Positions 1,624-57,054 of a DNA stretch of 64,000 nt are shown here, piece after piece. The stretch is from an uncultured Clostridia bacterium (GTDB lineage Bacteria; Bacillota; Clostridia; TANB77; CAG-508): contig CAKOVU010000001.1 in NCBI GenBank assembly GCA_934122115.1, positions 215,755 through 279,754 of the forward strand, given 5' to 3'. A model generated the notes under the pieces. That model made no database searches, had not been told where the DNA came from, and saw only the letters and a program-made list of their open reading frames with translations. Made by a program: the position numbers and the translations under genes. Position 1 is the stretch's first letter; every line of letters starts with the position of its first letter.

Positions 1624-3318
1624 ATGAAAAACTTGAATATTGAAGTCGAAGAAAATAAAAAAGGAATTACATTAGTTGCATTAGTAGTAACAATAGTAGT
1701 TTTATTAATACTGGCAGGAGTAAGCCTGAACTTATTAATAGGCAATAATGGAATAATAACGAGAGCACAACAAGCCAAGATAAGTAATGACCTAAGTTCA
1801 TATAAAGAGCAACTAGCAATGTTCATAGCAGAAAAGAAAGTAGAAAATCCAGAGTTTTATGAATCAAGCCTAACAGCAGGAAAGAATAATTTATATTATA
1901 ATACCAAAACATCAGAAGACGAAAAAACAATAAAAGACATAATCAATGATGTAAAAGATGAGTATTTAGACAGCCTAGAAGTAATAAAAGGAAAGCTAAT
2001 AATAAATACACAAGATAAAAATATAATAAAGGTGGCTCAAACAGTGGGAGTAGAACCAAATCCATATGATATAAGAAATGGAGTATTACAATCATCAGAT
2101 GGTAATTTATTATTAATGGATGAGAATGGAACATTAAGGATTCCGGATAGTGTAACAGAAATAGGAGAAGGAGCATTTTCTGGAATAGAAGGACTAAAAA
2201 CAATAATAATACCAGGGACAGTAAAAACTATAGCTACTAGTGCTTTTTCATTTAATACAACACTTGAAACAGTAATACTAGAAGAAGGAGTAGAGAATAT
2301 AGGCAATCAAGCATTTAATGGATGTAGCAATATAAAAAATGTGAACTTGCCAGAATCATTAAAAAGAATTGGAAATTTAGCTTTCTATCAATGCAGTAAA
2401 TTAGAAACAGTAACGATACCAGGAAATATACAAGATATAGGGAGTTATGCGTTTTCCGCATGTAGCATCTTAGATAATGTGGTACTGGAAAATGGAAATA
2501 AATTAATAAGCAATGAATGCTTTTCATATTGTTCAAATTTAACTAATATAACAATTCCAAGCACAGTAACAAGTATTAATGCATCTGCTTTTAGATATTG
2601 CACAAAACTAAACAAAATTATATTAAAAGAGAATAAGAGTTATACATTTTCTGATGGAATATTAAAAACGTCAGATGGTAAGCAGGTTGTATTTATGACT
2701 GATGAATTACTAGCAGGAACAAGCACGTTAGATATTCCAGAGGGGGTAACCAATTTTGGTATGGATGTTGCTGCGTATAAAAATATAAAACAAATAAAAA
2801 TACCATCTACATTGGAAAGTATATGTGAGGCAAACTATTTTCCGAATACTGTAAGTGATGTAATAGTAGACTCAAAAAATACCCAATATGTGGCAGAAAA
2901 TGGCATATTATATACGAAAGTAGGTAAAGAAGTAATAATGTGCTATTCAAAAGAAAAGGATATAAATATTCAAGAAGGAATATTAAGATTAAATGTATCC
3001 TCTTTTAATCAAGCTGAAAAAGCAGAAAATATTATTTTACCGGAAAGCTTAAAAGCTATTGAATATACGGCTTTTTCATCGCTAAATAATTGTAAAAAAA
3101 TAGTGATAGGAAAAAAAGTATCAGAAATTAGTCCTGTATTTAAATATGGCAATTATGCAGGGACAATTGAAATAAACAGTGAGAATCCATATTATATAGT
3201 GGAAAATAATATATTGTATTCAAAAGATAAAAAGAGATTAGTATGTGCTTTAAGCAAAATAGAAGGAACATTTACTGTATCAGAAGGCGTAGAAACAATA
3301 CGGATATTATGCTTTTGA
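1624..3318 (+). CDS. Pilin-like N-terminus (class III signal/N-methylation-like segment KGITLVALVVTIVVLLILAGVS) fused to a BspA-type leucine-rich-repeat domain; reading frame breaks near 3300
   Basis: N-terminus conserved with four paralogues. Repeats of the IPxxVTxIGxxAFxxCxxL type. Confidence 0.7.
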   Translation: MKNLNIEVEENKKGITLVALVVTIVVLLILAGVSLNLLIGNNGIITRAQQAKISNDLSSYKEQLAMFIAEKKVENPEFYESSLTAGKNNLYYNTKTSEDEKTIKDIINDVKDEYLDSLEVIKGKLIINTQDKNIIKVAQTVGVEPNPYDIRNGVLQSSDGNLLLMDENGTLRIPDSVTEIGEGAFSGIEGLKTIIIPGTVKTIATSAFSFNTTLETVILEEGVENIGNQAFNGCSNIKNVNLPESLKRIGNLAFYQCSKLETVTIPGNIQDIGSYAFSACSILDNVVLENGNKLISNECFSYCSNLTNITIPSTVTSINASAFRYCTKLNKIILKENKSYTFSDGILKTSDGKQVVFMTDELLAGTSTLDIPEGVTNFGMDVAAYKNIKQIKIPSTLESICEANYFPNTVSDVIVDSKNTQYVAENGILYTKVGKEVIMCYSKEKDINIQEGILRLNVSSFNQAEKAENIILPESLKAIEYTAFSSLNNCKKIVIGKKVSEISPVFKYGNYAGTIEINSENPYYIVENNILYSKDKKRLVCALSKIEGTFTVSEGVETIRILCF

Positions 3319-3328
3319 CGTTCAAAAT

Positions 3329-3565
3329 TTGATGAGTGAAGTTATAATAAATGAAGGAGTGAAAACAATAGAAGATACAGCTTTTTCACAGTGCACAAAT
3401 TTGCAAAGAATAGAAATTCCAAGCACAGTTACAAGTATTGGAAAAAATACATTTGAAAGGTGCATTAATTTATCAAACATAGTTATAAATAATAAAGAAG
3501 ACTCGATAGGTGGTGCACCATGGGGAGCACCAAAAGGAATGAGAGCAATAACCTGGAAAAAATAA
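3329..3565 (+). pseudogene. C-terminal LRR repeat continuing the 1624 gene in another frame (apparent +1 frameshift near 3297-3305; atacggatat versus expected ataggatat)
   Basis: Frame 2 upstream of 3329 reads ...QYGYYAFDVQNLMSEVIINEGVKTIEDTAF, the same LRR unit type. Could be a genuine pseudogene or a sequencing error. Confidence 0.5.
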
Positions 3566-3587
3566 TTGAATAAAAAGTAAAGCATAT

Positions 3588-3620: not shown

Positions 3621-3823
3621 TTCGTTAAGTAATAAACTTAACGAAAGTGTTTATATAAAAATTATAGCAATAAAACAGTGGTATTTCAATAAAAGTAAAA
3701 GAATAAATAAAGTTGCAAAATGATAAAAAATTTAAAAAAATAAAAATATAAACTTCTTGAAATCATTTAGTTCCAATGTATTCAAGGTTTTTAGTTACTT
3801 CCTTAAGTTTATTACTTAACGAA
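3621..3823. promoter_or_regulatory. Invertible DNA switch 2 (core sites ttcgttaag-taataaa-cttaacgaa at 3621-3645 and ttccttaag-tttatta-cttaacgaa at 3799-3823)
   Basis: Sequence-variant arms and spacer but identical 9-7-9 architecture. Spacers are reverse complements; outer arms are perfect inverted repeats. Confidence 0.75.
3661..3689 (-). promoter_or_regulatory. Sigma-A promoter inside switch 2 (TTGAAA-17-TGcTATAAT), facing away from the 3882 gene
   Basis: Seen directly; homologous position to the switch 1 and 3 promoters. Confidence 0.7.
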
Positions 3824-3881: not shown

Positions 3882-5714
3882 ATGAAAGAAGCAAGAGATG
3901 AAAAAGGGGTCACTTTATTAGAATTAACAATAACAATTACGGTATTGCTAATATTGGCAAGTGTTACAACACAATTGGGTTTAGGTAAAACGATGGAATT
4001 AAAAAGATATAATGCAGTAAAGAGCGATATAATAGAATTAACAGAGGCGGTTCAAACATATTATATGGAAAAAGGAGAGTTACCACTAGAAGATGCAGTT
4101 ACACAAGTAGAATTTACACCGCCAGAGGATAATAAAAATCCAAATGACAGTGGAGAATATTATGAAATAGATGTAAGTTTGCTAGAGAGTGTAAATATTC
4201 AGAATAAGAGAAATACATATATAGTGGATAAACAGAGTTTAACAGTGTATTGCCAAGAAGGAATAGAATATCAAGGAAAAACATATTACACGATACTGGA
4301 CAATAATGAGACAACAGATTATTATAATCAAGTAGATTTACCAATAATTTCAATAGTTACGTTTGAAAGTGATAATAGCATAAACAAGTATTGGGCAACG
4401 GAAGGAGACACAGTAACACTAAAGCTATTTACAAATTATGAAATAGATCCAACAGTAATTATAAATGGAACAAACGCAAATATAGAATGGAGTGAAGATA
4501 AAAGAATTGGAACAGCAACATATAAGATAGGAGAAATAAAAACACCAGATACAAAAATAGAGTTTAGCATATCGAATTACACAGCAAATGGAAAAGAAGG
4601 AGAAACGATAAACAAGCCAACATTTTCTGATGGAGTAACATTAAAAATGAATACATGGGAAATAATGAAAGTAAGCTTAAATACAGAAGCAATAGGAAAC
4701 GGAACAATAAATGGAGGTACACCAAACACCAATAATCCAATAATACCAAGGGGATACATACCAATAAATACAGGGAATGCCACATGGGGAGATGGAAGTT
4801 CTGCACCAACACAAAGTTCAGTAGATAACGGTCTAGTAATAAAAGATAGTAAAGGAAATGAATGGGTGTGGGTTCCAGTAGAAAAAAGCATATTGTCTAA
4901 AATGTATACAAAATCAAACGGAGAAAATATTACTGGAATTACAGGAGTAACGACTAAATTATATACAAATTCTACAACAATAGGAAGAGCGGGTGATACA
5001 GTAACCCTAACGAGAAGCCTACCAAATACAACCGATTATAGAGAACCGGATTTTATAGTTGGAGATAACAGTACGGATTATGACAAAAATGAAATCTACT
5101 ATAAAACAATATTAGGATTTGATACATCAGAGGCGATGGCAGAAGCATTTATTAGTGATTATGCTGATATGATAACTAGTATAGAAACATATGGTGGGTT
5201 TTATATCGGAAGATATGAATTATCAAATGAAGGGGTGCAAAAAGGAAAAGCAACATTAACCAATAAAAATTGGTATGAATTATACAAAAAATGTACAGAA
5301 TTAAAAGCAAGTGAAAAAGTAGAAAGTAGGATGATATGGGGAATTCAATGGGATTTAACATGTGATTTTATATCTAAAAAGGGTGAAAAAAAGAGCATAA
5401 CAAATTCTACTACTTGGGGAAATTATAATAACAGTACAGGAAATGCAGCTGTAATGGAAGGAACAGCCAAAAAATATGGAAGTAAGCAAGTAACAGGATA
5501 TAGTGAATACTGGAAGGCAAACAATATATATGACTTTGCAGGAAACTGTTGGGAATGGAGTCAAGAGGCTATACGTATTATAAACCGTACCCATAGAGGT
5601 GGTGTTTATGGTCAAGATGGTTTAAGTGAACCAGCATCTATTCGTAGCTATAGTTGGGCAAGTTATAGTAATGGTAGTGATTTGGGTTCTCGACCGATTT
5701 TAATAATAAAATAG
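3882..5714 (+). CDS. Pilin-like N-terminus (G|VTLLELTITITVLLILA with Glu+5) fused to an FGE-sulfatase/SUMF1-type (C-type-lectin fold) C-terminal domain, 610 aa
   Basis: Canonical prepilin-type class III signal. C-terminal motifs NNIYDFAGNCWEW and RGG of the FGE/DUF323 family. Confidence 0.7.
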   Translation: MKEARDEKGVTLLELTITITVLLILASVTTQLGLGKTMELKRYNAVKSDIIELTEAVQTYYMEKGELPLEDAVTQVEFTPPEDNKNPNDSGEYYEIDVSLLESVNIQNKRNTYIVDKQSLTVYCQEGIEYQGKTYYTILDNNETTDYYNQVDLPIISIVTFESDNSINKYWATEGDTVTLKLFTNYEIDPTVIINGTNANIEWSEDKRIGTATYKIGEIKTPDTKIEFSISNYTANGKEGETINKPTFSDGVTLKMNTWEIMKVSLNTEAIGNGTINGGTPNTNNPIIPRGYIPINTGNATWGDGSSAPTQSSVDNGLVIKDSKGNEWVWVPVEKSILSKMYTKSNGENITGITGVTTKLYTNSTTIGRAGDTVTLTRSLPNTTDYREPDFIVGDNSTDYDKNEIYYKTILGFDTSEAMAEAFISDYADMITSIETYGGFYIGRYELSNEGVQKGKATLTNKNWYELYKKCTELKASEKVESRMIWGIQWDLTCDFISKKGEKKSITNSTTWGNYNNSTGNAAVMEGTAKKYGSKQVTGYSEYWKANNIYDFAGNCWEWSQEAIRIINRTHRGGVYGQDGLSEPASIRSYSWASYSNGSDLGSRPILIIK

Positions 5715-7197: not shown

Positions 7198-7740
7198 GTG
7201 ATGAGCTTTTTTGAAATTTTTTATCCTAAAAAGCATATAAATAATGTATTAGATATAGAGTACAATTTCTTACAGGAGAACGGAATTGAAGCATTATTAT
7301 TGGATATAGATAATACATTAATTGATTATGATAATAATCTACTAGAAGGGTTAGAAAATTGGGTAGAAAATTTGAAAAGGAAGAACATAAAATTTTGCAT
7401 ATTATCAAATACTAATAAAAAGCAGAAAGCGGAGAAGTTATCAAAAAAATTTGGTATTCCATATGTGTTTTTTGCAACGAAACCATTAAAAAGAGGCTTT
7501 TATAAGGCAAAGGAAATTTTAAAAATACAAGATAATACGAAAATTGCAGTTGTGGGTGACCAAATAATGACAGATGTATTGGGTGCAAATAGGTGCAAAA
7601 TGTATTCAATATTAGTTACTCCGATAAAGAATAAAGATATATTTGTTACAAAGATAAATAGAGTTATAGAAAAAAAAATATTAAAAAAATACTATAAAGA
7701 CAAGATGAAAGATAAGAGGGATACGAATGTACATAAATGA
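7198..7740 (+). CDS. HAD-superfamily phosphatase, YqeG family
   Basis: LLDIDNTL motif I and GDQIMTDVLGAN motif. Confidence 0.7.
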   Translation: MMSFFEIFYPKKHINNVLDIEYNFLQENGIEALLLDIDNTLIDYDNNLLEGLENWVENLKRKNIKFCILSNTNKKQKAEKLSKKFGIPYVFFATKPLKRGFYKAKEILKIQDNTKIAVVGDQIMTDVLGANRCKMYSILVTPIKNKDIFVTKINRVIEKKILKKYYKDKMKDKRDTNVHK

Positions 7741-8464
7741 TATAAATATTTTATATTTTTTAGGAATAGGAATTTTAGGATTATTAGTAGGGCAGTTTGT
7801 AGATTGGTGTAATATTAGATTGTTAGAGCACAAAAAAGTTTTTAGTAAAGAATTTTTTTCGGTATATATGAAACAATTTAAGCCTAAATACAGCTACATG
7901 TGTGCAATGGCTATTATATATGTAGGGATAATGTATACAAGTGCATTTTCGCTAAAGGCATTGGCATATTACATATTAGCACCAATGCTAATGAGTGCTT
8001 TGATAATAGATTATAAAGAACAGATAATTCCTAATAGGTTAAATCTAACAATTTTTGAAGTTGGATTAGCATACACGTTTTTGGAAGGAATAGTAAATAT
8101 AAATGTTGCAATAAATATGCTTTTAGGAATGATTGTTGGAGCTGGAATATTTTTGCTTATAACTTTTATAGGAGGTCTTATTGCAGGTAAAGAAGCGATG
8201 GGTTTCGGAGATGTAAAGCTTATGGGAGCTTTAGGATTATTTTTTGGATGGCAAACAATAATTATTATTTCACTTTTTGCATTCTTGATGGGAGCAATAA
8301 TTGGAGTTTTATTGATTGTAAGCAAGAAAAAATCAACACAGGATTATATTCCATTTGGACCATTCATAGTAATAGCAGCTATAATAGCAATGTTTGTACC
8401 ATTTAATATTTTATTATTAGCATCATTAAAAATATTCACATTAGGAACATATACAGGAGCATAA
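7727..8464 (+). CDS. Type IV prepilin peptidase (A24 family)
   Basis: Polytopic membrane protein with the GFGDVKLMGALG motif. Confidence 0.75.
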   Translation: MYINDINILYFLGIGILGLLVGQFVDWCNIRLLEHKKVFSKEFFSVYMKQFKPKYSYMCAMAIIYVGIMYTSAFSLKALAYYILAPMLMSALIIDYKEQIIPNRLNLTIFEVGLAYTFLEGIVNINVAINMLLGMIVGAGIFLLITFIGGLIAGKEAMGFGDVKLMGALGLFFGWQTIIIISLFAFLMGAIIGVLLIVSKKKSTQDYIPFGPFIVIAAIIAMFVPFNILLLASLKIFTLGTYTGA

Positions 8465-12577: not shown

Positions 12578-12791
12578 TCCTTAAGTTATATACTTAAAGA
12601 TAAATTCAATACAAAAATTATAACAATAAAGTATTAATATTTCAATAGTTTTAATAAAAATGTTATAAGTTTTTTTGAAACGAAAAAAATAAAATATTTA
12701 AAATTTAACAAACCTTGCAATACTACAGATACAAGATATACACAACTTTTATTGAAGAAAAATTACTTCGTTAAGTATATAACTTAAGGAA
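12578..12791. promoter_or_regulatory. Invertible DNA switch 3 (core sites at 12578-12600 and 12767-12791), inserted just downstream of ssrA
   Basis: Core sites identical to switch 1; spacers are reverse complements. Confidence 0.8.
12617..12645 (-). promoter_or_regulatory. Sigma-A promoter inside switch 3 (TTGAAA-17-TGtTATAAT), facing away from the 12854 gene
   Basis: Seen directly. Confidence 0.7.
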
Positions 12792-12853: not shown

Positions 12854-14143
12854 ATGAAAAATAGAAAAGGTATTACATTAGTTGCTTTGGTAATTACAAT
12901 AGTTGTTATACTAATTTTAGCGGGAGTGAGCTTGAATTTGATTTTTGGAGAAAATGGAATATTAAGAAAGAGTGAGTACACTGCTAATAAGTATAGTAAG
13001 CAGAATGAAAATGAGCAGACAGAATTAAATGATATAAATTTATGGATTGATGAGAGCACTGAGAAGCTAATAAAAGTAAATGTGAATGAAAAGGCAAAAA
13101 TCAATGGAACCATAAATGGCGAAAAAGCAAGCAATAATAATCCTGTAATACCCAAAGGTTATATACCTATAGATGCTGGAAATGCAATTTGGGGAGATGG
13201 TATAAGCAGCCCAGCTCAAAATTCGGTGGATAATGGTCTAGTAATAAAAGATGATGATGGTAATGAATGGGTGTGGGTACCTGTAGATGAAGAAACAATA
13301 AAGAAAATGTATGTTGTTTCTGATAAAGAAAACGGAGAAAAACTAGCAGGTGAAACAGAAATTACAACCAAATTTTATTCTAATACTACAACTATAGGTA
13401 AAGAAGGAGACACAGTTAAGATTGATAGAGTAAAGCCAAATGAGTCAGAATACAGAGAACCAGACTTGGTAACAAAATATGATTTAGAAGAAGAATATTA
13501 TAAAAATATATTGGATTTTAAAAGCCCAAAAGATATGGCAGAAGCATTTACAAAAGAATATGAAAATATGCTCAAAAGCATAGCAAAATATGGTGGATTT
13601 TACATAGGAAGATATGAATTATCGAATGAAGGCGTGCAAAAGAGAAAAACAGTTTTGTTTAATACGAATTGGTATAATTTATATAAGGAATGTGCAACAT
13701 TAAATGCAAGTGAAAAAGTTGAGACAAGAATGATATGGGGGGTTCAGTGGGATTTAACATGTGATTTTATATCTAAGAAAGGAGAAAAGAAAAGTATAAC
13801 AGATTCACGCAGTTGGGGCAATTTTTTAGATAGTATAGATAATGCTGCAGTAATGGACGGAACAACTAAAAAATATGGAGAGGGGCAAACAACTGGATTT
13901 AGTGAATATTGGAAAGCAAATAATATATATGATTTTGCGGGGAATTATGTGGAATGGACTCAAGAAGCGGGAAGTAATAATGAATGTAGAAGCCTAATGG
14001 GAAGAGACTATAAAACAGAAGGTGCTTCATCATGTACTTCAAGAATAAGACATTATCCAAATGAAGACCATCATAATAGAATACGGCACAAGACCAACTT
14101 TGATAATACTGGACTAATTAAAAATTATATGATAGAATTTTGA
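12854..14143 (+). CDS. Pilin-like N-terminus fused to an FGE/SUMF1-type domain, 429 aa
   Basis: N-terminus KGITLVALVITIVVILILAGVSL; C-terminus shares NNIYDFAGN.VEW and the GFYIGRYELSNEGVQK block with 3882. Confidence 0.7.
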   Translation: MKNRKGITLVALVITIVVILILAGVSLNLIFGENGILRKSEYTANKYSKQNENEQTELNDINLWIDESTEKLIKVNVNEKAKINGTINGEKASNNNPVIPKGYIPIDAGNAIWGDGISSPAQNSVDNGLVIKDDDGNEWVWVPVDEETIKKMYVVSDKENGEKLAGETEITTKFYSNTTTIGKEGDTVKIDRVKPNESEYREPDLVTKYDLEEEYYKNILDFKSPKDMAEAFTKEYENMLKSIAKYGGFYIGRYELSNEGVQKRKTVLFNTNWYNLYKECATLNASEKVETRMIWGVQWDLTCDFISKKGEKKSITDSRSWGNFLDSIDNAAVMDGTTKKYGEGQTTGFSEYWKANNIYDFAGNYVEWTQEAGSNNECRSLMGRDYKTEGASSCTSRIRHYPNEDHHNRIRHKTNFDNTGLIKNYMIEF

Positions 14144-39250: not shown

Positions 39251-39271
39251 TATAAAGGAAGGATAAATAAA

Positions 39272-39958: not shown

Positions 39959-39970
39959 AAGGAGAACGAT

Positions 39971-40825
39971 ATGGCAGTAATATCTTTTTGGGGAAACAGC
40001 GAAAAAGAAACTGGACAAACAATTGCTACCATGGCTATATCTACCATGATGGCTTTTGAACATAATTATAAAATATTAACAATTTCTACTGGCTTTAAAG
40101 ATAGAACCATGGATGAAAGTTTTTGGCCGGCAAATAGAGCAACAGGATTACAAAGAATATTAGGAACACAAAGCGAAAACTTTGTTAATATGGAATCTGG
40201 TATAGAAGGATTAGGCAGAGTAGTAGAAAGCAATAGGTTAAGAAAAGGGCTAATACCGAACTATGCAAAAGTAGTATTTACCAATAGATTGGACGTGCTA
40301 GTATCACCTAGAACCGAAAATCCAAAAGAATATATAGAAATTGCAAAAACATATCCTAGCATTATTGAAACAGCAGCAAATGATTATAATATGGTTTTTG
40401 TAGATATTGATAAGAGGCTTCCAACAGAAATTCAAAGAGCAATATTAACTAAGTCAGATGTTATAATAATAACTGCTAAACAAGGGCAACAAGGAATAAA
40501 CAAATTAAATGAATTAACCAAAAAGAATGAAATGTTTCAAGGAGACAATATATTAAAATTGATAGGCAAATATGATGCAAGCTCTAAGTATAATGTAAAA
40601 AATATATCAAGAGAATTGCGAGAAAGAAAATTAATCTTATCTGTGCCTTATAATACAATATTCTTTGAAACAACAATGGAAGGAAAAGTACCAGATTACT
40701 TTTTAAAATTTAGAGGCTTAACAGTAGTAGATAAAAACGATTCTAATATGTTTTTCTTATCAGAGCTAAAAAGAGATTGTGAAATAATATTAGAAAAAAT
40801 ACGTGAAGTAGAATTAAAGAGATAA
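39971..40825 (+). CDS. Second degenerate MinD/ParA-fold protein (TadZ/CpaE-like)
   Basis: ISFWGNSEKETGQTIATMAIS in place of the P-loop; DYNMVFVDID. Confidence 0.45.
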   Translation: MAVISFWGNSEKETGQTIATMAISTMMAFEHNYKILTISTGFKDRTMDESFWPANRATGLQRILGTQSENFVNMESGIEGLGRVVESNRLRKGLIPNYAKVVFTNRLDVLVSPRTENPKEYIEIAKTYPSIIETAANDYNMVFVDIDKRLPTEIQRAILTKSDVIIITAKQGQQGINKLNELTKKNEMFQGDNILKLIGKYDASSKYNVKNISRELRERKLILSVPYNTIFFETTMEGKVPDYFLKFRGLTVVDKNDSNMFFLSELKRDCEIILEKIREVELKR

Positions 40826-40844
40826 CAAAGGAAAGGAGCTAGAC

Positions 40845-42758: not shown

Positions 42759-42772
42759 AAGGAGGTGCAATT

Positions 42773-44851
42773 ATGCCATCGAGTAAAATAATATTATACA
42801 TGCTTATAGCAGTAGGAGTATTATTAGGATTTATAGTAGTAGCGTATATGGTATTAAGAAAAAAACTACAGCAATCAGATGTAATGCAGATGCAAAAGCT
42901 TCGTGCAGGTACTCAAGAGAAAACTTTTTCACTAGAAATACTATATCAGAAATTATATACAAAATACATAAAAACCCCCTTCTTAAAAAGATATCTATTT
43001 AAAATAAGAAGAAGATTGGAAATTATTAACGTAGATGATGAATATTTAACAAGAAAGCAAACTTCGCAAATATTAACAAAAGCTTTATTAATAATTATTC
43101 CACTTACATTATTCATAATTTTAATAGCGAAAAGTAATGCTTTATTACTATCTATATTATTAATATTTGAACTATTTATAATAGATACTTTAGTAGATGG
43201 TATGGTTGATAAAATGGATAACAGATTGCTTCAACAGCAGATAGATTTCTTTGCAGAAATAAGACATGCTTACCACGAATACAACATGGTTGAAGAAGCA
43301 ATTTATCAAGTAGCTCAGGATGATGAAAACGTTGAGATGGCAAGGCAGGCAGAAAAGATATATGAGATATTAATATCAAATGACCCTGAGAGTGAACTTG
43401 AAAAATATTATGATGTTGCACCAAACAGCTATTTAAAAGAATTTGCTGGAATATCATATTTAACAAAGGAATTTGGCGATAGAAAAGTAGATAAAACTTC
43501 TTTATATTTGAAGAATTTAAATAATATAAGCCAAGAAATGCAATTGGAAATATTAAAAAGAGATAAATTGGATTATGTGTTCCAAAGTTTGTCTGTAATA
43601 TCTATACTTCCATTACTAGCATTAGAGCCAATAAAAAATTGGGCAGTATCACAATTTTCATTTACATCATCATTCTATTTGGGAAAACAAGGAATGATAG
43701 TGCAAATATTAATAGTAATACTTACATTCTTGTGCTATACGTTAACAAGAAAATTGAAAGATAATGGCTCAACAACAATTGATACAAGGCCAACAAACCC
43801 ATGGCAAGAGAAATTATATAAATTGCCAATAATAAAGCAATTGGTAGATTGCTTTATACCAAAAGATGGAACAAAAGAAAGAAGAAGATTAACAAATTTA
43901 ATAAAAGATTCTGCAACAAAAGATAAGATACAATGGATATATGTATCAAGAATATTGTTAACCATTGTAGCATTTGCTGGCTCTTTAATTGTATTTACTC
44001 AGTTACATAGAATTGAAATAGATTATATATACACACAACCAACTTCAACTTATAATATAGTTGGAGAAATGTCTGATAAAAACTTAAAAAGTGCTCAGCA
44101 ATTAACAGAAAGTGATAACAAGTTTTTAAATAAATTTAGAGGAAAAACTGCTACAACTTTAGAAGATATAGAAAAAGCTATGTCTAGGTCTGAAGACTAT
44201 GCCACAAGCACAGATGATGAAATTGAAGTGGCAGCAAAAAGAGTATTAGAAAAATTAAGAAAAATCAATAGTGAGTATCTAAGTTGGTTTGAAATGCTAC
44301 TTGCAATGGTATTTGCTTTAGTGGGTTATAACTTACCAATATGGCTATTATATTTCCAAGCAAGAATGAGAAAGATGGAAATGGAAGACGAAGTAATGCA
44401 ATTCCAAACAATCATTTTAATGCTTATGAGAATTGAAAGAGTTAATGTAGAAATGATTCTTGAATGGCTAGAAAGATATTCAAATATATTCAAAGAACCA
44501 CTTGCTAAATGTATAAACAATTATGAAAGCGGTTCATGGGAAGCTCTTGAGCAATTAAAAGATGATGTAAATTATAAAGACTTTATTAGAATAGTAGAAA
44601 GTCTTCAAGCAGCAGTAGAGAAAATACCAATTGCAGATGCTTTTGATGAATTGGATTCTGAAAGAGAGTACTATCAAGCTAAACGTAAAGAATCAAACGA
44701 AAGATTAATCAGCAAAAAAGGAATGATTGGAAAAGTAATAGGTTTTGCCCCAATGGTTTGCTTATTTGTAGGTTACTTAATAATACCTTTAGTATTAATA
44801 GGATTAACAAGTATGAATTCATCATTTGCTGGAATGTCTTCATCAATGTAG
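42773..44851 (+). CDS. TadB/TadC (GspF-type) polytopic membrane platform protein, fused or duplicated, 692 aa
   Basis: Multiple TM blocks with T2SS-F-like cytoplasmic domains. Confidence 0.55.
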   Translation: MPSSKIILYMLIAVGVLLGFIVVAYMVLRKKLQQSDVMQMQKLRAGTQEKTFSLEILYQKLYTKYIKTPFLKRYLFKIRRRLEIINVDDEYLTRKQTSQILTKALLIIIPLTLFIILIAKSNALLLSILLIFELFIIDTLVDGMVDKMDNRLLQQQIDFFAEIRHAYHEYNMVEEAIYQVAQDDENVEMARQAEKIYEILISNDPESELEKYYDVAPNSYLKEFAGISYLTKEFGDRKVDKTSLYLKNLNNISQEMQLEILKRDKLDYVFQSLSVISILPLLALEPIKNWAVSQFSFTSSFYLGKQGMIVQILIVILTFLCYTLTRKLKDNGSTTIDTRPTNPWQEKLYKLPIIKQLVDCFIPKDGTKERRRLTNLIKDSATKDKIQWIYVSRILLTIVAFAGSLIVFTQLHRIEIDYIYTQPTSTYNIVGEMSDKNLKSAQQLTESDNKFLNKFRGKTATTLEDIEKAMSRSEDYATSTDDEIEVAAKRVLEKLRKINSEYLSWFEMLLAMVFALVGYNLPIWLLYFQARMRKMEMEDEVMQFQTIILMLMRIERVNVEMILEWLERYSNIFKEPLAKCINNYESGSWEALEQLKDDVNYKDFIRIVESLQAAVEKIPIADAFDELDSEREYYQAKRKESNERLISKKGMIGKVIGFAPMVCLFVGYLIIPLVLIGLTSMNSSFAGMSSSM

Positions 44852-44881
44852 TACTGATAAAAATTCTGGAGGAAAATATAT

Positions 44882-45508
44882 ATGGAAAACGCAACAAAAG
44901 CACTGGAAATAGCTGGCGGAGTATTAATTTCATTAATAATAATAGGAACAATAGTATTTTTTTACAACAGAATATCAGAAGTAAAGCAAACAGAACATAA
45001 TACTCAAGCGGAAGAGCAAGCAGCAGATTTTAATAAAGATTATGAAGTATATAACAGAAATGACGTTTATGGAAGTGAATTATTATCTTTAGCAAACCAG
45101 ATGCAAGATTATAACACTAGAGAAGTTGAAAAAGGTTATGAAAAGATAGAATTAAGTGCCACTTTTAAGCAAAAATCTAATATATTTATACAATATTATG
45201 GCAATAAGCAAACATATTCTCAAAGTGATTTAGCATCTGGTTATACAAAGCTTGCAAATGAAATAAATAAACTTTCAACTAAAAAGATAACAGACGCTTC
45301 TGGTCAAACAACAAAAACATATAATGAATGGGTAAAAATATCTAAAACTACCTTGAAATCAACTTTAAAAACTGCAGATTATAATAGTATAATAAATTAC
45401 CAAGACTTAATAACTGAGCAAACTAATATTGCTAGAGGAACTTTTAGATGCACAGATGTAAAATATAAAAATTCAAGAATAGTAAAAATGACTTTTTCTG
45501 AAAATTAG
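44882..45508 (+). CDS. Pilin-like protein, MENATKALEIAGG N-terminus, 208 aa
   Basis: Shared N-terminal motif plus hydrophobic segment, as in 45526, 46539 and 46984. Confidence 0.5.
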   Translation: MENATKALEIAGGVLISLIIIGTIVFFYNRISEVKQTEHNTQAEEQAADFNKDYEVYNRNDVYGSELLSLANQMQDYNTREVEKGYEKIELSATFKQKSNIFIQYYGNKQTYSQSDLASGYTKLANEINKLSTKKITDASGQTTKTYNEWVKISKTTLKSTLKTADYNSIINYQDLITEQTNIARGTFRCTDVKYKNSRIVKMTFSEN

Positions 45509-45525
45509 AATAGGAGGTAGCTAAA

Positions 45526-45987
45526 TTGGAAAATGCGAGCAAAGCTTTAATTATGGCTGCATCAGTACTTATAGCTATTATGGTTTTGTCATTAGGTGTA
45601 TATTTGTTTAGCATATTTGGTGGAACAAGCCAAGAAATAACAAATATTATAACAGAAAGTCAAATTTCAGAATTTAATAGTAACTTTACAAAATATGAAG
45701 GAAAAACTGATATAAGGGCACAAGATATAGTAAGTGTTGCGAATTTTGCAATAAAAAGCAACAAACAAAACGAAGATGACCCAAGAAAATATGTTTATGT
45801 GGTGCTAAGAAAAACACCGGGATTTAACAGTAACAGTTTTGAAACAAAAGAAAGCGAATTTATTGATTTTATAAAGCAATATTCGCTAGAACCAGACAAT
45901 GTAACAGTAATAAATTTTAAGTGTAGTGATGTTCAAATAAATGAAGAAACTGGTATGGTAAATAAGATTATTTTTGAAAAAATTTAA
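45526..45987 (+). CDS. Pilin-like protein, MENASKALIMAAS N-terminus, 153 aa
   Basis: As above; GGAGG RBS. Confidence 0.5.
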   Translation: MENASKALIMAASVLIAIMVLSLGVYLFSIFGGTSQEITNIITESQISEFNSNFTKYEGKTDIRAQDIVSVANFAIKSNKQNEDDPRKYVYVVLRKTPGFNSNSFETKESEFIDFIKQYSLEPDNVTVINFKCSDVQINEETGMVNKIIFEKI

Positions 45988-46050
45988 CAAACAGATTTTT
46001 ATAAAAAAGATTGCATAAAAAAATATAAAATGCTATAATAAAGAGGAATT

Positions 46051-46488
46051 ATGAAAAAAATTGGGATATTAATTTGTACTCTAGTAATAGTTATAGTTGC
46101 AGTAATTGGTGTTAATATATATAGCTATAATGAAAGATTAAAAGCAGCTGAAAAAAATAATAAAAATTATCAAAGTTATTATAATGTAGAAGTACTTGGA
46201 AGTGATGTGGGGTCACTTATAAATAAAATATTAGATACAAATTCAAAAAACAATATTCAAAAAGATGAAAATGGGAAATATATAGATAATGGAAAAGAAA
46301 TTGCAATTTCGGTTACAATAAAGTTTTTAGAATTAGATAAAAACATTTCAATCGAAGCAATTGAAAAGCAAGGAGTAGATAGATTTATTAAAAATTTCGG
46401 TGCAGAAACATTTAAATGCACAGAAATAGAATATTACCCAAATGCGAAAGGTGTTAAATCAATGCACTTTGAGCAAGTAAAAAAATAA
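46051..46488 (+). CDS. Small signal-anchored protein in the pilus locus, 145 aa
   Basis: N-terminal TM; RBS AGAGGAA. Confidence 0.4.
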   Translation: MKKIGILICTLVIVIVAVIGVNIYSYNERLKAAEKNNKNYQSYYNVEVLGSDVGSLINKILDTNSKNNIQKDENGKYIDNGKEIAISVTIKFLELDKNISIEAIEKQGVDRFIKNFGAETFKCTEIEYYPNAKGVKSMHFEQVKK

Positions 46489-46538
46489 GTTATTAATATT
46501 TTTAAAATATAAAATAAAATCTAAGGAGGAACATTTTT

Positions 46539-46949
46539 ATGGAAAACGCAAGTAAAGCACTAATCATAGCAGGAGCTATTTTAGTATCAATTTTAATTAT
46601 AGGTTTAGGTATGTATCTTTATACAACCGCAAGTGGTGTATTTGATAGCAACCAATTAAAAGAGCAACAAGCTAGAACTTATAATGATCAATTTGAAAAA
46701 TATTTTGGTTCAAAAGTTACAGGTTCAAATGTAAGAGCACTTTATGATGCAGTAAGAAACCACAATATAACAAACCAAAGCGATACATCTTTAACTATAA
46801 CAATTAAACATGGTACAAGTTCAGCTAGTACTGCTGCACAATTAAACACTGATAAAGCTGCAATTCAAGCTGGTAAAGTTTACACAGTTGAAGGAACGAC
46901 TTATGATTCAACATCAGGATACATAACAGAAATAACAGTTACAGACTAG
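46539..46949 (+). CDS. Pilin-like protein, MENASKALIIAGA N-terminus, 136 aa; candidate major subunit
   Basis: Shortest member, AAGGAGG RBS, Ser/Thr-rich. Confidence 0.5.
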   Translation: MENASKALIIAGAILVSILIIGLGMYLYTTASGVFDSNQLKEQQARTYNDQFEKYFGSKVTGSNVRALYDAVRNHNITNQSDTSLTITIKHGTSSASTAAQLNTDKAAIQAGKVYTVEGTTYDSTSGYITEITVTD

Positions 46950-46983
46950 TTAAGTTAATAATAAAGTGAAATAGGAAAGAATT

Positions 46984-47622
46984 ATGGAAAATGCAGTTGA
47001 AGCTTTAAAAATGGCATTTGCAATGCTTGTGCTAGTATTAGCACTTTCAGTATCAATCATGTCCTTTTCAGCGGCTAGGCAAACAGCAGATTTTGTATTA
47101 CAATCTGCTGACCCAACTGCAACCTATGAATATAATGCAGAAGGGCAAGAAAATAGAATAGTAGGGTTGGAAACAGTTATTCCAACTTTATATAAATATT
47201 CAATAGAAAATTACTCAATAGTTTTTAAGCAGGCTAGCGCAAATCAAGTAGATACGGCAAATGGAAAATTGTTAGTGCCGTATAACGAAATTAGTCCGCT
47301 AACCATATATACAACAAAAACAGTTAGAAGCACTTGGCCAGAAGACTATGTAAATACTACATTAAATCAAGACAAAAACATTAGTGTATTTGATTTAAAA
47401 GAAGAGCAAGAAAGAGGAGAAAGCTGGACAATAAGTAGTGATGCTATCAAAGAAAATCTAAAGAATATTATAGAGGGCAAAGGTCAAAATAACGAATATG
47501 CAAACAATCCATTAACTAAAAGAAATAATAAATACTTAGAGCTAATAGGAAGAAGCCAGGTAAGAAAATCTGGAAATAATACAGTTTCTAAAATAACAAT
47601 AACATATGTATTAATTAATTAA
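46984..47622 (+). CDS. Pilin-like protein, MENAVEALKMAFA N-terminus, 212 aa
   Basis: As above. Confidence 0.5.
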   Translation: MENAVEALKMAFAMLVLVLALSVSIMSFSAARQTADFVLQSADPTATYEYNAEGQENRIVGLETVIPTLYKYSIENYSIVFKQASANQVDTANGKLLVPYNEISPLTIYTTKTVRSTWPEDYVNTTLNQDKNISVFDLKEEQERGESWTISSDAIKENLKNIIEGKGQNNEYANNPLTKRNNKYLELIGRSQVRKSGNNTVSKITITYVLIN

Positions 47623-47664
47623 CAGAAGAAGGACAAGATTAAAAGTTTAGAAAGGAAATAGATT

Positions 47665-48189
47665 ATGGGAGATAGTTTAATGACAATAATTGCGATTTTT
47701 TTAGCAGCTATATTGATGTTTGTGTTCCCACTAATGTCAATGTCTGATAGAACTGATGATATTTCACAATTATTAGTAGAAACAGCTACAACAGAATTTG
47801 TAGATAATGTAAGAAGTACAGGAAAATTAACATTGGATGATTACGATAAATATGTACAAGAAATATCATCTACAGGAAATACATATGATGTAGAAATGAC
47901 AGCACAAATATTGGATGAGAATCCAGGAATAAAAACAACACAAGCTGAAATAACAAAAATAGGAGAGAATGTATATTACAATTTATATACAACTCAAATA
48001 GAAGATAGATTAAAATCTAATTCTACATTAAAGCTAAAGGAAGGAGATATTTTCTCAGTTTCTGTAAAAAATACTAATACAACAATATCTCAATCTTTGA
48101 AAAACTTTTTCTACAAAATAGCTGGAAATGATACATATCAAGTTGCTGCACAACATGCGGGAATGGTAACTGTTAATGGAACAAAATAA
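47665..48189 (+). CDS. Pilin or minor-pilin-like protein with an N-terminal hydrophobic segment, 174 aa
   Basis: MGDSLMTIIAIFLAAILMFVFPLM. Confidence 0.4.
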   Translation: MGDSLMTIIAIFLAAILMFVFPLMSMSDRTDDISQLLVETATTEFVDNVRSTGKLTLDDYDKYVQEISSTGNTYDVEMTAQILDENPGIKTTQAEITKIGENVYYNLYTTQIEDRLKSNSTLKLKEGDIFSVSVKNTNTTISQSLKNFFYKIAGNDTYQVAAQHAGMVTVNGTK

Positions 48190-48276
48190 AGATTATAAAA
48201 GCAAAGCCCGACTTAATTAAATAAAATAAGTCGGGTTTGTTTTAAACTAAATTATATTTAGAAAGGTAATTAACAA

Positions 48277-49890
48277 ATGAAACTACAACATTTAGCAGTG
48301 ATTTTTGTAATTATAATATTGCCAATATCGTTGGTATTAGCTGCTTATTTAGGTAATCAAATTACCACAATACAATTGCAAACACAGTATAGTACTAAGC
48401 TAATTAATGCAACATATGACTCACTAAAGGCATTTAAAATAAATACAGCAAATAACAACTATTCTACTTTGGGCGCCTCAAAGGCAAGAGATATAGAAGC
48501 CTCGGTTAGTACTTTTTATAGAACTTTAGCAACTGCAATGGGAACAATCGGGTATAGTTCATATGAATTGCAAACATATACACCTGCTTTAGTATACACA
48601 TTGCACGATGGCTTTTATATTTATACAAAATATTATGATACAAATAAAAATGAATATACATATGGCTTAAAGCCTATGATAGCTTACTCTTGTAGATATA
48701 AGGTTGGAAACGGTGATAGATATGATTTTGTGGTAAACTATACTTTAGATAATTCAATATCTATAATAGGAACTGTAGATGGTGAATTCGTTACAAAATC
48801 AGGATATTTGATAACTAGAGCTTATAATGTGCATCAATATGAAGCTTTATATGAAAATTTGATTACATTTAATGACGCAGGAAACCCAGAAAATACAGAT
48901 TCAGATGGAAAGCCTGTACCTGTTAGGTATCAATATATTGTATACAATAATCAAAAAGTGTACAAAGATGGAGATAGATATTTCTATTATAGTAGTGGCT
49001 ATAGGAAAGATTATTTAAAATCAAGTGATGATATAAGAGAGGTTGAAAGTCGTTTTAATAATGGAGGAAGCAATAGTGCATCAATGTATTATACTGAGGC
49101 TGCAACATTCTCATACTGGGTTATGAACAAATTGAGCAGTATAAAAATATCTGATGCTGTAGATGCCAATGGAAATTCAATAAGTTTTGCATCAAATTTA
49201 AGTGGAAACGTATTTGATGTTAGTACAGATAATGATCCATTAGTAAGCACATCATTATTTAATGAACATAGAATGAATGTAATTAGAAGAACTATAGAAA
49301 CCAATTTAGCTTCTTCAATAGCAAATTATAACAGTTACTCTAAATCGGGTTACCAATTTACAATGCCAATATTAAATGAAAACGAATGGGATAAAATAGA
49401 GAATAATGTTTGTATGATAGCTTTCTTACAAGGATTACCTATAGGAGGCAAGCTTTATAATAACTATTGTGTAGTTGCAAATAATGCTAATAAAGAAACT
49501 ATAGGAAGAAATTCAATTTATATAATAGATAGTGAAGGTGAATACCACAAATCAGGATGTGCAACTTTAATTGCTAAATTAAGGAGCGGAACTGCAACAA
49601 TAGTTGGAGCATATGCAAATAGCGATTTTGAAAGAAAAGCAGTTTCGCTTACAGGCGAAGATGCAAATGCTGGATCACAATTAACAGGAAGTAATGCAAA
49701 TGATACAGCATACTATTTCCCACAGGCATATACGTCGTGCTATGATTGTATAGTAAATTCTCAGGAGGATTATGATATAGACGATATAATAAATGGAAAG
49801 GTAAATATACCAGTGCTAAAAGATGCATATTTAAAGGCTTTAGCAAGATGCAGATATGATGCATATACACAGAATCAATATTTTAAGTAA
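48277..49890 (+). CDS. Large secreted or anchored protein of the pilus locus, 537 aa (tip-adhesin or TadG-like candidate)
   Basis: N-terminal hydrophobic segment. Tyr/Asn-rich, typical of a beta-rich extracellular domain. Confidence 0.4.
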   Translation: MKLQHLAVIFVIIILPISLVLAAYLGNQITTIQLQTQYSTKLINATYDSLKAFKINTANNNYSTLGASKARDIEASVSTFYRTLATAMGTIGYSSYELQTYTPALVYTLHDGFYIYTKYYDTNKNEYTYGLKPMIAYSCRYKVGNGDRYDFVVNYTLDNSISIIGTVDGEFVTKSGYLITRAYNVHQYEALYENLITFNDAGNPENTDSDGKPVPVRYQYIVYNNQKVYKDGDRYFYYSSGYRKDYLKSSDDIREVESRFNNGGSNSASMYYTEAATFSYWVMNKLSSIKISDAVDANGNSISFASNLSGNVFDVSTDNDPLVSTSLFNEHRMNVIRRTIETNLASSIANYNSYSKSGYQFTMPILNENEWDKIENNVCMIAFLQGLPIGGKLYNNYCVVANNANKETIGRNSIYIIDSEGEYHKSGCATLIAKLRSGTATIVGAYANSDFERKAVSLTGEDANAGSQLTGSNANDTAYYFPQAYTSCYDCIVNSQEDYDIDDIINGKVNIPVLKDAYLKALARCRYDAYTQNQYFK

Positions 49891-55255: not shown

Positions 55256-55683
55256 ACAAACCTCCAGAAAGTAGATTTGTTTAATAATATTCAACAAAAC
55301 AAAATATATGTGTCAAAAATCAATAAAGCATATTGCTGTGATGTATAAATCGAAATAGAGATATAATAAAGAAGTTGTAGAAATGACAATAAGAGATTTT
55401 ATAACTATTTTTTTGAAAATTTTGTTTCACATCATTGATAATTATGCACAAATAAAATAAAAAATAAAAAAAGATATTGCAAAAGAAAAAAAGTAATAGT
55501 AAAATAAAATTGAAGTATTTGTAATCTAAATTATAGCAAGAAAAAAGGTACAAATACAGCAAGAGCTAATAAAAACTATAATATAGAAAACAAATACAAA
55601 AAACTAAGAATATTATAGTAAAAAACAACTTAAAATGTTGCGAAAAAATCAAAAAGACCCAAAAGAAACAAAGGAGGATAAAG

Positions 55684-57054
55684 ATGTTTAAAAAACAGAA
55701 AATAAAATCAAAATCAGGAATAACATTAGTGGCTCTTGTTGTAACAATAGTTGTGCTATTGTTATTAGCGGGAGTAAGTCTAAGTTTAGTTATAGGTAAC
55801 GACGGAATAATGAAAAGAGCAAAAGAGGCTAAAGAAAAATATGGACAAGCAAGCAAGAATGAGCAGAAAGATTTAGATACAGTAGAAGATTATATGAATA
55901 AAATGACAGGTGAAGGTTCTGGAACTGGAACAGGAACTGTTGTGAAGGTAAATGTAGGAGAATCTGCAACGGGTGTTGCAACAATAAATGGAAAAGCAGG
56001 AAATACAAATAATCCAACAATACCAAAAGGCTATACACCAATAAATGCAGGAAATGCCACGTGGGGAGATGGAAACAGTAGCCCCGCCCCAAGTTCAATA
56101 GATAATGGCTTAGTAATAAAAGATGATAATAATAATGAATGGGTGTGGGTGCCAGTAGAAGAAATTAGCAAATATTATGAAAGCGTAGATTCAGGAGTCA
56201 CAATAACAGGAAGTACAGTAACAACAAAAAAATATACAAAATCATCAATAGAAATGGGAAGAGAAGAAGATAAGACAACAATAACAAGAGGATTACCAAG
56301 TAGTAGTAATAGTTGTCGTGAGCCTGCATTACTAGGTACAAATTATGATAGTGATGCTAATGCGAAAAAGGCAGGATTTACAGATGCAAAAGATATGGCA
56401 ACAAAAATGGTAAGAGAATATGAAACAATGATAAAAAGCATAGAAAAATATGGAGGATTCTATATAGGAAGATATGAGCTATCTGGAACAGTAGATAATC
56501 CAACAGAAAAAACAGGAGCAACAATAACAAAAAAAACCTGGTATGAATTGTATAATGCATGTAAAAAAATAGGAGCAAAATCTGATGGAAGTGATAAAGA
56601 AGGAATAGCAACAAGAATGATATGGGAATGCCAGTGGGATGCCACATGTGATTTTATATCAAAAAAGGGAGACCAAAAGAAAATAACAGATTCACGTAGT
56701 TGGGGAAATTATTCTGATTCAACGTTTCCAGCCAATACAGGAAATTATGAAAAAAGTAAAAAGAAAGATACAGGATCAAATGAATATTGGAAGGCAAATA
56801 ATATTTATGATATAGCAGGAAATTGCTATGAATGGACACAAGGGGCGAGCGTCACCAGCAGACGTGCTGAACGTGGAGGTTACTACTACGACAGTGGCTC
56901 TTACCTTCCAGCATATATCAACAGCCACAACGATCCTACCAACAGCTACGTCTTCTTACGGTTCTCGTCCCACTTTAATAATTACTACTGGAATCTAGAG
57001 CGTGGGAACCAGTGGAAAGAAGAATGGAATAGGTTGACAGAAAATAGAATCTAA
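55684..57054 (+). CDS. Pilin-like N-terminus fused to an FGE/SUMF1-type domain; C-terminal tail frame-shifted relative to paralogue 3882
   Basis: N-terminus and first 70 aa nearly identical to 25876. The homologous ...GSRPTLIITTGI* ending is in another frame. Confidence 0.65.
   Translation: MFKKQKIKSKSGITLVALVVTIVVLLLLAGVSLSLVIGNDGIMKRAKEAKEKYGQASKNEQKDLDTVEDYMNKMTGEGSGTGTGTVVKVNVGESATGVATINGKAGNTNNPTIPKGYTPINAGNATWGDGNSSPAPSSIDNGLVIKDDNNNEWVWVPVEEISKYYESVDSGVTITGSTVTTKKYTKSSIEMGREEDKTTITRGLPSSSNSCREPALLGTNYDSDANAKKAGFTDAKDMATKMVREYETMIKSIEKYGGFYIGRYELSGTVDNPTEKTGATITKKTWYELYNACKKIGAKSDGSDKEGIATRMIWECQWDATCDFISKKGDQKKITDSRSWGNYSDSTFPANTGNYEKSKKKDTGSNEYWKANNIYDIAGNCYEWTQGASVTSRRAERGGYYYDSGSYLPAYINSHNDPTNSYVFLRFSSHFNNYYWNLERGNQWKEEWNRLTENRI

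Follow-up and report, generated by a model that had tools for sequence, protein, structure and literature searches.

A prepilin-like N-terminal module shared by putative surface binding proteins, with invertible promoters and predicted retroelement targets, in an uncultured gut Clostridia bacterium

We analyzed a 64 kb stretch of chromosomal DNA (hereafter, the window) from an uncultured Clostridia bacterium, corresponding to positions 215,755 to 279,754 on the forward strand of contig CAKOVU010000001.1 (assembly GCA_934122115.1). The DNA is that of a low-GC (~29%) spore-forming Firmicute, and nearly all of its genes are co-oriented. Our subject is a set of five genes, denoted c1 to c5, whose products begin with nearly the same segment, resembling a class III (prepilin) signal, and continue into large C-terminal modules. 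An original prediction, made from the letters of this DNA, had proposed that these are pilin-like, phase-variable surface proteins. All coordinates are positions in the window; loci fetched for comparison (n = 88) have names beginning with L, and homologous proteins have names beginning with P. The five genes, together with the continuation of c1 in another frame, are:

c1, 1624..3318, plus strand: pilin-like N-terminus (leader MKNLNIEVEENKKG, Ala at +5), a weakly GspG-like region and BspA-type leucine-rich repeats (LRRs).
c1 LRR continuation in another frame, 3302..3565, plus strand: 88 codons, ending in ...ITWKK and a stop; repeat D13.
c2, 3882..5714, plus strand: Glu at +5, ~80 GspG/PilA-N-like residues at the start, then a middle region, with an FGE-type C-type-lectin domain at the C-terminus.
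c3, 12854..14143, plus strand: leader MKNRKG, Ala at +5, FGE-type domain.
c4, 25876..27075, plus strand: Ala at +5, long helix, Gly/Thr linker, FGE-type domain; target gene of a diversity-generating retroelement (DGR) cassette.
c5, 55684..57054, plus strand: Ser at -2, Ala at +5, FGE-type domain; predicted remote DGR target, without an invertible promoter segment (inverton).

All five open reading frames (ORFs) lie where the original prediction had placed them, and a six-frame regular-expression scan of the 64 kb for G-[IV]-T-L-x-[AE]-L followed by a hydrophobic residue returned exactly five sites, those of c1 to c5. Each leader is basic, 6–14 residues long and ends in Gly at -1; it is followed by [IV]TL... 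and a hydrophobic stretch of ~21 residues. Over the first 30 mature residues, c1, c3, c4, and c5 are identical to one another at 22–28 positions and to c2 at 13–14 positions. Beyond the N-terminus, c1 is unrelated to the other four copies. The DNA encoding the N-terminus is likewise repeated (family D3, 108 nt, 72–77% identity), and thus the five-fold resemblance is not due to chance. As had been claimed, Glu occupies position +5 only in c2, while c1, c3, c4, and c5 have Ala.

The N-terminus does not have the form of an ordinary Sec signal: Gly at -1 and the hydrophobic helix are present, and no signal-peptidase site lies downstream. Sequence matches of the N-terminus in the PDB are pilins only (MshA, Geobacter PilA-N, and GspG), and the family profile matches the N-terminus of the MshA pilin. 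The first ~80 residues of c2 match GspG (E 7e-6), as well as the Geobacter PilA-N and GspG chains of the PDB; the weak GspG/PilA-N matches in c1 and c2 span about 55–80 residues. Among the five proteins, only c2 passes TIGR02532 (17.2 vs 16.3), and the orthologues of c2 retain Glu at +5. The resemblance of the common N-terminus to a class III signal, rather than to a Sec signal, is supported by these comparisons.

The same N-terminal module is widespread. When residues 1–75 of c4 served as the query of a full-database HMMER search, 21,760 representative clusters were matched at E<=1e-3, of which 1,085 reached E<=1e-10. Almost without exception, the match falls at the extreme N-terminus, in proteins of 70–706 amino acids. 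In the best 150 cluster representatives, little or no variation is seen at G-1, I+1, T+2, L+3, A+5, L+6, and further positions of the helix, with an overall mean column identity of only 6%. This strict conservation speaks against a generic membrane anchor. N_methyl is matched by 43 of 62 family members at E<=0.01 and by 49 of the 150 representatives at E<=0.001, and one homologue carries the JGI name "pseudopilin PulG". The further domains found in the best 150 include LRR_5 (13 proteins) and FGE-sulfatase (9 proteins), and also DUF285, Big_2, Glug, Flg_new, Laminin_G_3, and PKD. In architecture the module is that of "modular pilins" in the sense of Raynaud et al. (PMC8179133), except that Ala is the usual residue at +5. 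The family is well supported and abundant; its pilin-type processing step is putative.

The C-terminal modules are of two kinds. In c1, BspA-type LRRs were recovered as foreseen, by LRR_5 (PF13306; E 4e-70, 234 bits vs a cut-off of 27.7) in five stretches. A frame change near 3300 cuts the c1 ORF, and LRR_5-type repeats run on to the stop at 3565. In c2 to c5, domain searches and fold comparison agree on the FGE/C-type-lectin assignment. Of the two motifs that had been ascribed to these four copies, NNIYD..GN..EW is present in all of them, while RGG is missing from c3 and found in c2, c4, and c5. The AlphaFold2 model of the c2 lectin domain, built from a 111-sequence alignment, had a predicted local distance difference test score (pLDDT) of 87 and a predicted template modeling score of 0.91; full-length c4, with 62 sequences, gave a pLDDT of 35. 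In the fold comparison, the c2 model scored highest with two DGR variable proteins, TaqVP (12.2) and TvpA (11.1), followed by PvdO (10.8), SUMF2 (10.6), EgtB (9.7), and Mtd (8.2); OvoA and PorK fell within the same range of scores. Foldseek pointed to the same superfamily, with EgtB and OvoA among the leading matches.

The ends of the FGE-type genes carry the marks expected of DGR targets, and c4 is followed by two DGR accessory genes. The features are:

Variable region (VR) of c4, 26930..27066, plus strand: GC 53–57%, rich in C-ending codons, aligns to the template repeats (TRs) of L004 and L037.
MutS-like (MSL) DGR accessory gene, 27315..27779, plus strand: MutS_I 24.6 bits vs 20.6.
Avd-like DGR accessory gene, 27769..28146, plus strand: bAvd E 6.5e-16; followed by a terminator and then ftsK.
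VR of c5, 56847..56958, plus strand: GC ~50%, up to 70% C-ending codons, flanks invariant among orthologues.
Fossil VR of c2, 5571–5680, plus strand: AT-rich codons.

The terminal 110–140 nt of c4 and c5 have a GC content of 50–57% and up to 70% C-ending codons, in a genome of 29% GC. An entropy profile of 118 c4 homologues (73–99% identical) showed that residues 1–353 are near-invariant, while residues 354–393 are hypervariable at interspersed positions; the variable segment closes with a conserved GFRLTLFL. The trio of c4, MSL, and Avd is kept in relatives whose other neighbours differ, and the MSL gene is found at the same place in L004, L037, and L061. In L004 and L037, the cassette has the order target-MSL-Avd-RT-TR, the reverse transcriptase (RT) being identified by RVT_1 (E 4.9e-18) and an IGNYTSQ motif. 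The mismatches between TR and VR in these two relatives fall on TR adenines in 21 of 26 and 19 of 25 cases. Across six VRs, columns with A in both TRs vary in 31 out of 34 cases; columns without A vary in 18 out of 53. These comparisons place c4, as the target gene, in an MSL+Avd cassette of "Architecture D" (Wu et al. 2018, PMC5758913) that lacks the RT and the TR here.

The truncation in the window is sharp: homology of its cassette to L061, L004, and L037 extends only to 28130, which is 18 nt into the RT gene. A tblastn search with the L037 RT found no RT in the 64 kb (best E about 1), and no TR was found in the window by a repeat search, a permissive blastn of the four C-terminal regions, or an AAC-codon density scan. 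A DGR complete within the window was therefore rejected, as both the RT and the TR were undetected across the 64 kb. Among relatives, L004, L014, and L037 have the RT; it runs off the contig end in L061 and L062, and is truncated in L063 and L083, which makes three truncated cassettes in all with that of the window. In L083 (2305–4020), the RT is cut after ~242 residues and, as judged by eye, fused in frame to Dxr-type (deoxyxylulose-phosphate reductoisomerase) sequence. In L063 (11875–12262), only an RT remnant is left, beside a FokI-type restriction-modification system. The hairpin or cruciform that follows the VR in the Bordetella phage has a modest counterpart in c4 alone (z -2.8), the signal in c5, L004, and L037 being not significant, and it was given no weight as evidence.

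The site of c5 on the chromosome is conserved and syntenic in L067–L069, and no cassette lies close by. The columns of its VR vary at codon positions 1, 2, and 3 in 24, 27, and 10 of 39 cases, respectively, a bias that we read as the AAC-codon signature of a DGR; the invariant residues of the VR are of the CGTGCTAACCGTGGAGGTAAC... type. We read c4 and c5 both as DGR targets, and the FGE/C-type-lectin fold, which the original prediction had called the classic scaffold of DGR variable proteins, serves literally in that role here. Second VR-like matches in L078 and L081 were considered as TRs and rejected, as they are tandem paralogues. The GC-rich, C-ending VR signature is absent from c2 and c3. 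The orthologues of c2 have a few discrete VR alleles with AT codons and no hypervariability, and the VR equivalent of c3 is degenerate; both genes carry decayed former VRs.

The pace of diversification can be read from relatives at different distances. The VRs of the 99%-identical relatives P0001 and P0121 are unchanged, and c4 and c5 each show three residue differences from their 99% relatives, none of which is in the VR. At 87% identity, the 38-residue VR holds 20 out of 48 differences. Since VRs are identical at 99% and divergent at 87%, diversification is evident lineage-wide and not at the strain level here. Because the cassette of the window has lost the RT and the TR, the VR of c4, and probably that of c5, would be frozen unless an RT and a TR elsewhere act in trans.

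Some of the copies end in a shifted frame. The tail of c5, RFSSHFNNYYWNLERG... (56950–57054), reads in the +1 frame when set against the canonical ending, G[ST]RPTLII with its stop. A +1-frame tail of the type RFSSHFNN... occurs in 40 out of 41 c5 orthologues, and also in c3 and in some members of the c2 group. In c3, the C-terminus (14040–14143; RHKTNFDN...) is in the +1 frame, and the canonical YGTRPTLIILD with its stop lies in another frame. Immediately 5' of GGTTCTCGT, the DNA has 7 nt in place of the 3 nt of an in-frame relative. An assembly error was rejected as the source of the c5 frameshift, because the 40 orthologues sharing the tail come from independent assemblies. The indel probably sits in the c5-type TR, from which it would be copied at every retrohoming. 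Downstream of c2 (5697–5833), before a gene for an AAA_14/DUF4143 ATPase, there are two direct 63-nt repeats, 81% identical, each holding TTACGAA..AAACGGAAAAAATTCGTAATGAA.

Upstream of c1, c2, and c3, short inverted repeats (IRs) enclose a promoter, and half of such an element lies upstream of c4. The features are:

Inverton 5' of c1, 1348..1559: IRs CTTAAGTTATATACTTAA (1348–1366) and TTAAGTATATAACTTAAG (1542–1559); promoter TTGAAA-17-TATAAT on the minus strand, 1414->1386, OFF.
Inverton 5' of c2, 3625..3821: IRs starting at 3625 and 3803; promoter on the minus strand, ~3689->3661, OFF.
Inverton 5' of c3, 12580..12788: IRs 12580–12599 and 12771–12788; promoter on the minus strand, 12645->12617, OFF.
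Relic half-inverton 5' of c4, 25182..25246: left IR 25182–25199, promoter on the minus strand, 25246->25218, no right repeat.

In the three complete elements, the IRs (consensus CTTAAGTTATATACTTAA) enclose ~160–175 nt with a TTGAAA-17-TATAAT promoter (with TG), and all three promoters point away from their gene (OFF) in this assembly. A separate promoter-like site lies 5' of c4 (25592–25620, plus strand), and c5 has no inverton element. With a strict pattern, the same element was found 5' of other family members in the fetched loci, 11 of them OFF and one ON. The orthologous loci L076 and L081, which come from different metagenomes, differ by an inversion: the internal segment is identical at 156 of 172 positions when compared as the reverse complement and at 111 of 172 when compared directly, while the flanks are in direct orientation and 85–92% identical. 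L078 is a second locus with an inverted segment and a forward promoter. The claim that c1 to c3 are phase-variable is upheld by these two orientations, and there is strong comparative evidence that promoter segments of this type are invertons. The IRs are near-palindromic, though their interpretation as mere palindromic operators was rejected because the whole 172-nt segment is inverted at an orthologous locus. As the same IR consensus recurs at several loci, one shared recombinase would be expected to act on them. Multi-locus invertible promoters are known from Bacteroides fragilis, where they are controlled by Mpi, and from the RecV switches of Clostridioides difficile. In the window, no inverton-controlled copy has a live VR, and no DGR-marked copy has an inverton.

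Smaller elements lie beside the invertons. A 47-nt hairpin (stem AAACATATTG/CAATATGTTT, 27-nt loop) is found just 5' of the left repeat at 1292–1338 and 25130–25172. At c1, its loop contains the -10 box of a plus-strand promoter-like site (1280–1308); in the c4 copy, the loop is reverse-complemented, and a version with a shorter loop lies 5' of c2 (3584–3612). The hairpin could be a second mini-switch or the result of a hairpin flip. Within the ~600 nt between the half-inverton and c4, a short hydrophobic-peptide frame with a Gly/Ser-rich end (...GGGFYGGGSSFGGGSSRSF) was noted by eye at 25290–25565, where it occupies the place of the right IR in c1 to c3.

Two features of the window bear on how such proteins might be processed and displayed:

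A24 prepilin-type peptidase, 7727..8464, plus strand: 245 amino acids, PF01478 E 1.8e-19, Asp motifs IIDYKEQIIPN and GFGDVKL.
Divergent Tad-like type IV filament cluster, 38342..49890, plus strand: the only filament machinery in the window.

The peptidase named in the original prediction is thus present with both catalytic Asp motifs intact, and it is a candidate processing enzyme for c1 to c5. The Tad-like cluster encodes a CpaB-like SAF protein, two ParA/MinD-like proteins, a 637-aa TadA-like ATPase, a 692-aa polytopic protein, a 537-aa protein, and six small proteins, four of which start with MENA[STV][KE]AL and a hydrophobic stretch (repeat D10). Most of the proteins of the cluster have no Pfam match. 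The cluster is syntenic 5' of c5 in the relatives L067–L069.

The explanation that we favor, and consider probable, is that c1 to c5 belong to a very large, lineage-specific family of surface binding proteins, in which a prepilin-like N-terminus is joined to a ligand-binding module and which is varied by invertons and a DGR. Under this explanation, uncultured low-GC spore-forming gut Clostridia would display modular proteins consisting of a class III signal, an alpha-1-type helix, and a binding module. Most likely, the A24 aspartic peptidase would cut after the conserved Gly. The hydrophobic helix would then anchor the protein in the membrane, or mount it in a type IV filament as a minor subunit, probably at the tip; Ala in place of Glu at +5 would suit a tip or non-polymerizing role. 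The two modes of variation, unlike the processing, are shown by the comparisons: invertible promoters (TTGAAA-17-TATAAT between CTTAAG-N7-CTTAA(G) IRs) precede c1, c2, and c3, and the VRs of c4 and c5 were written by a DGR through adenine-specific mutagenic retrohoming from a template repeat. A more specific form of this explanation, which we put forward only tentatively, is that the module without Glu at +5 is a general adhesin handle mounted on a type IV-class filament tip, possibly that of the Tad-like filament, under two-tier variation, in which invertons would select the paralogue to be expressed and the DGR would alter the binding site of the lectin.

Several observations weigh against this explanation, some against pilin-type processing and display, others against ongoing variation. 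Those of the first kind would also suit proteins whose N-terminus stays uncleaved as a type II signal-anchor, or is an export signal specific to the lineage and without relation to type IV pilins, so that the products are plain membrane-tethered adhesins. The expectation that profile searches would recover pilin-type N-termini held in part: N_methyl (PF07963) matches c1 to c4, but with 15.5, 20.0, 18.7, and 18.8 bits, all below the gathering cut-off of 21.2, and c5 is not matched at all. Glu at +5 is absent in four of the five copies, and Ala holds this position in at least 90% of the module family, i.e., it is the family norm. In c3 to c5, the helix leads through the linker to the lectin domain without a detectable globular pilin domain. 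There are no canonical type IV pilus genes close by, and no PilB/PilC-type machinery or major pilin with the c1–c5 signal was found in the 64 kb. Moreover, at the N-terminus, a transmembrane domain or a signal peptide is what most cellular DGR targets have (Roux et al. 2021, PMC8144416). A mere signal-anchor, however, does not sit well with G-1, I+1, T+2, L+3, A+5, and L+6 being near-invariant across 150 otherwise divergent representatives, nor with the fit of K-G-[IV]-T-L-x-[AE]-L to a prepilin peptidase site. The c2 orthologues, which keep Glu and pass TIGR02532, the continuation of c1 and c2 into GspG/PilA-N-like sequence, and the intact peptidase gene in the window also argue for a prepilin-like signal. 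We therefore regard membrane-tethered adhesins with a signal-anchor as a somewhat doubtful alternative. As the sole filament machinery of the window has small subunits with another N-terminal signal than c1 to c5, the cleavage of c1 to c5 by the A24 peptidase and their display on a filament are only what we infer from sequence. From established knowledge of type IV pili, the missing Glu speaks against a subunit of the filament body and fits a tip or non-polymerized role. GspK-type tip pilins are known exceptions that lack Glu at +5. The position of GspK at the tip is discussed in PMC8179133.

The observations of the second kind could mean that the family is in decay in this strain, with pseudogene copies, promoters locked OFF, and a dead DGR, so that nothing is displayed or diversified. 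The C-termini of c1, c3, and c5 are frame-altered and sigF is split too, and some copies may therefore be pseudogenes. The RT and the TR are deleted from 28130, all three invertons are OFF, the VRs of c2 and c3 have drifted to AT-rich codons, the VRs are unchanged in 99% relatives, and the cassettes of L063 and L083 have decayed as well. The two orientations of the inverton come from different metagenomes and not from a single population. The window ORFs of at least 100 amino acids yielded no recombinase domain; the recombinase gene may be located elsewhere in the genome. No c5-type TR was found in the 88 fetched loci or by a degenerate VR/TR pattern scan of viral contigs. P0086, a member of the c4 family, is identical on 32 contigs, which suggests slow or episodic diversification. 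Nevertheless, the ORFs are open over 400–610 codons in dozens of orthologues at 70–99% identity, and a tail shared by 40 of 41 c5 orthologues is a lineage trait rather than random decay. An OFF majority is usual for invertons in assemblies, and ON copies exist at orthologous loci. Promoter-like sites of their own precede c4 and c5, and the GC-rich VRs have yet to drift towards the AT bias of the genome. Wholesale decay thus appears unlikely. Far less probable still is that the FGE-type domains have an enzymatic role (formylglycine-generating or sulfoxide-synthase-like) or that the genes encode prophage receptor-binding proteins. The Pfam name FGE-sulfatase, the prominence of EgtB and OvoA in Foldseek, and the many DGR targets that are phage tail proteins (PMC8144416) would point that way, but the part of the fold that forms the enzyme active site is hypervariable here, and the five genes lie amid housekeeping genes (efp, transketolase, ftsEX, the spoIIA operon, ftsK, mutS2, and rny) with no phage genes; the VR pattern scan of viral contigs was empty.

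The proposed family of prepilin-like binding proteins has likenesses to several known systems. The closest in architecture are PilB (vWA) and PilC (lectin) of Streptococcus sanguinis (PMC8179133, PMC9934059), in which, too, a linker connects a class III signal and alpha-1 to a bulky binding module. Common to both cases are monoderm hosts, an expected tip location, and many architectures. PilB and PilC, however, have Glu at +5, a full small pilin domain, a pil operon, and proven assembly, whereas here four of five copies have Ala at +5, c3 to c5 have the helix only, and the genes are scattered among housekeeping genes. The binding modules differ too, being here LRRs or DGR-type C-type lectins under predicted programmed variation. 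An FGE-type C-type-lectin fold is known from the DGR variable proteins of Treponema denticola (TvpA, 2Y3C) and Thermus aquaticus (TaqVP, 5VF4); TvpA is a lipoprotein and a pilin-like N-terminus is missing from TaqVP, while the anchor here is a prepilin-like signal. Type V pilus tips in gut Bacteroides (Macadangdang et al., bioRxiv 10.1101/2024.11.15.621889) likewise combine a DGR with Msl and Avd, a C-type-lectin head, and a pilin-type N-terminal module. In these gut commensals, the DGR diversifies the lectin head, and the idea of a pilus that bears a hypervariable adhesin is common to both cases. The Bacteroides tips belong to an unrelated pilus with a lipoprotein signal and strand-exchange assembly in a diderm host, in contrast to the type IV-like module of a monoderm described here.

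Large non-pilin binding proteins that use a prepilin-type signal for display are found in the bindosome of Sulfolobus solfataricus (Zolghadr et al. 2011, PMC3047682). That system is archaeal, consists of ABC-transporter binding proteins with the Bas machinery, and has no known programmed variation. The promoter switches resemble the invertons of gut bacteria (PMC11892184, PMC11602134), in which short IRs surround a promoter 5' of surface-protein genes; unlike known invertons, those described here have a near-palindromic IR, and the pilin-like adhesin paralogues that they switch have siblings that are predicted DGR targets. In one survey, "GspG-type pilin" is among the scarce DGR-target domains, without further analysis (PMC11661182), and cellular DGR targets are mostly described only as "membrane-anchored binding proteins" (PMC8144416). 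No paper tying DGR targets to prepilin signals was found in the literature that we searched. Each ingredient (modular pilins, MSL+Avd lectin DGRs, Type V tips, class III non-pilins, and invertons) is known; the family combines three such known devices.

The remaining genes place the window in its genomic setting. Neighbours include ssb, efp, a split transketolase gene, ftsEX, the spoIIAA/AB/sigF operon, spoIID, ftsK, cdaA, mutS2, and rny. The sigF gene is split into a region-2 ORF (22401–22880) and a region-4 ORF (22861–23169), and an AlbA_2/HATPase_c_4-HTH gene is likewise split (57973–58758 and 58727–59350); these are either true pseudogenes or assembly indel errors. An Rfam scan of the window returned nothing beyond a tmRNA and tRNAs:

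tmRNA, 12047–12404: 166 bits, directly 5' of the c3 inverton.
tRNA, 11872–11943, minus strand: one gene.
tRNAs, 57545–57794: three more, 3' of c5.

The closest public relatives of the studied genes come from uncultured gut metagenome-assembled genomes labeled "Clostridia bacterium" or "Clostridium sp." (e.g., CAG:465, UMGS1476, and HGM13643), whose hosts are humans (including Hadza and Nepali cohorts), rabbit, mouse, and water deer.

The family occurs in thousands of human-gut metagenome contigs, in which the anchor of predicted DGR targets is a prepilin-like module that also bears many other adhesin domains. The inverton copies with fossil VRs, lying beside DGR-marked copies, would offer a natural system for the trade-off between ON/OFF switching and hypermutation and for the decay of DGR cassettes. 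Should processing and mounting turn out to be pilin-like, the scaffolds of retroelement-diversified adhesins would include type IV filaments as well as Type V pili; c4 and c5 would then be the first DGR-diversified type IV-type pilins and the monoderm counterpart of the Bacteroides Type V tips. In that case, the family may also give uncultured small-genome gut Clostridia a means of attachment to hosts, particles, or other cells.

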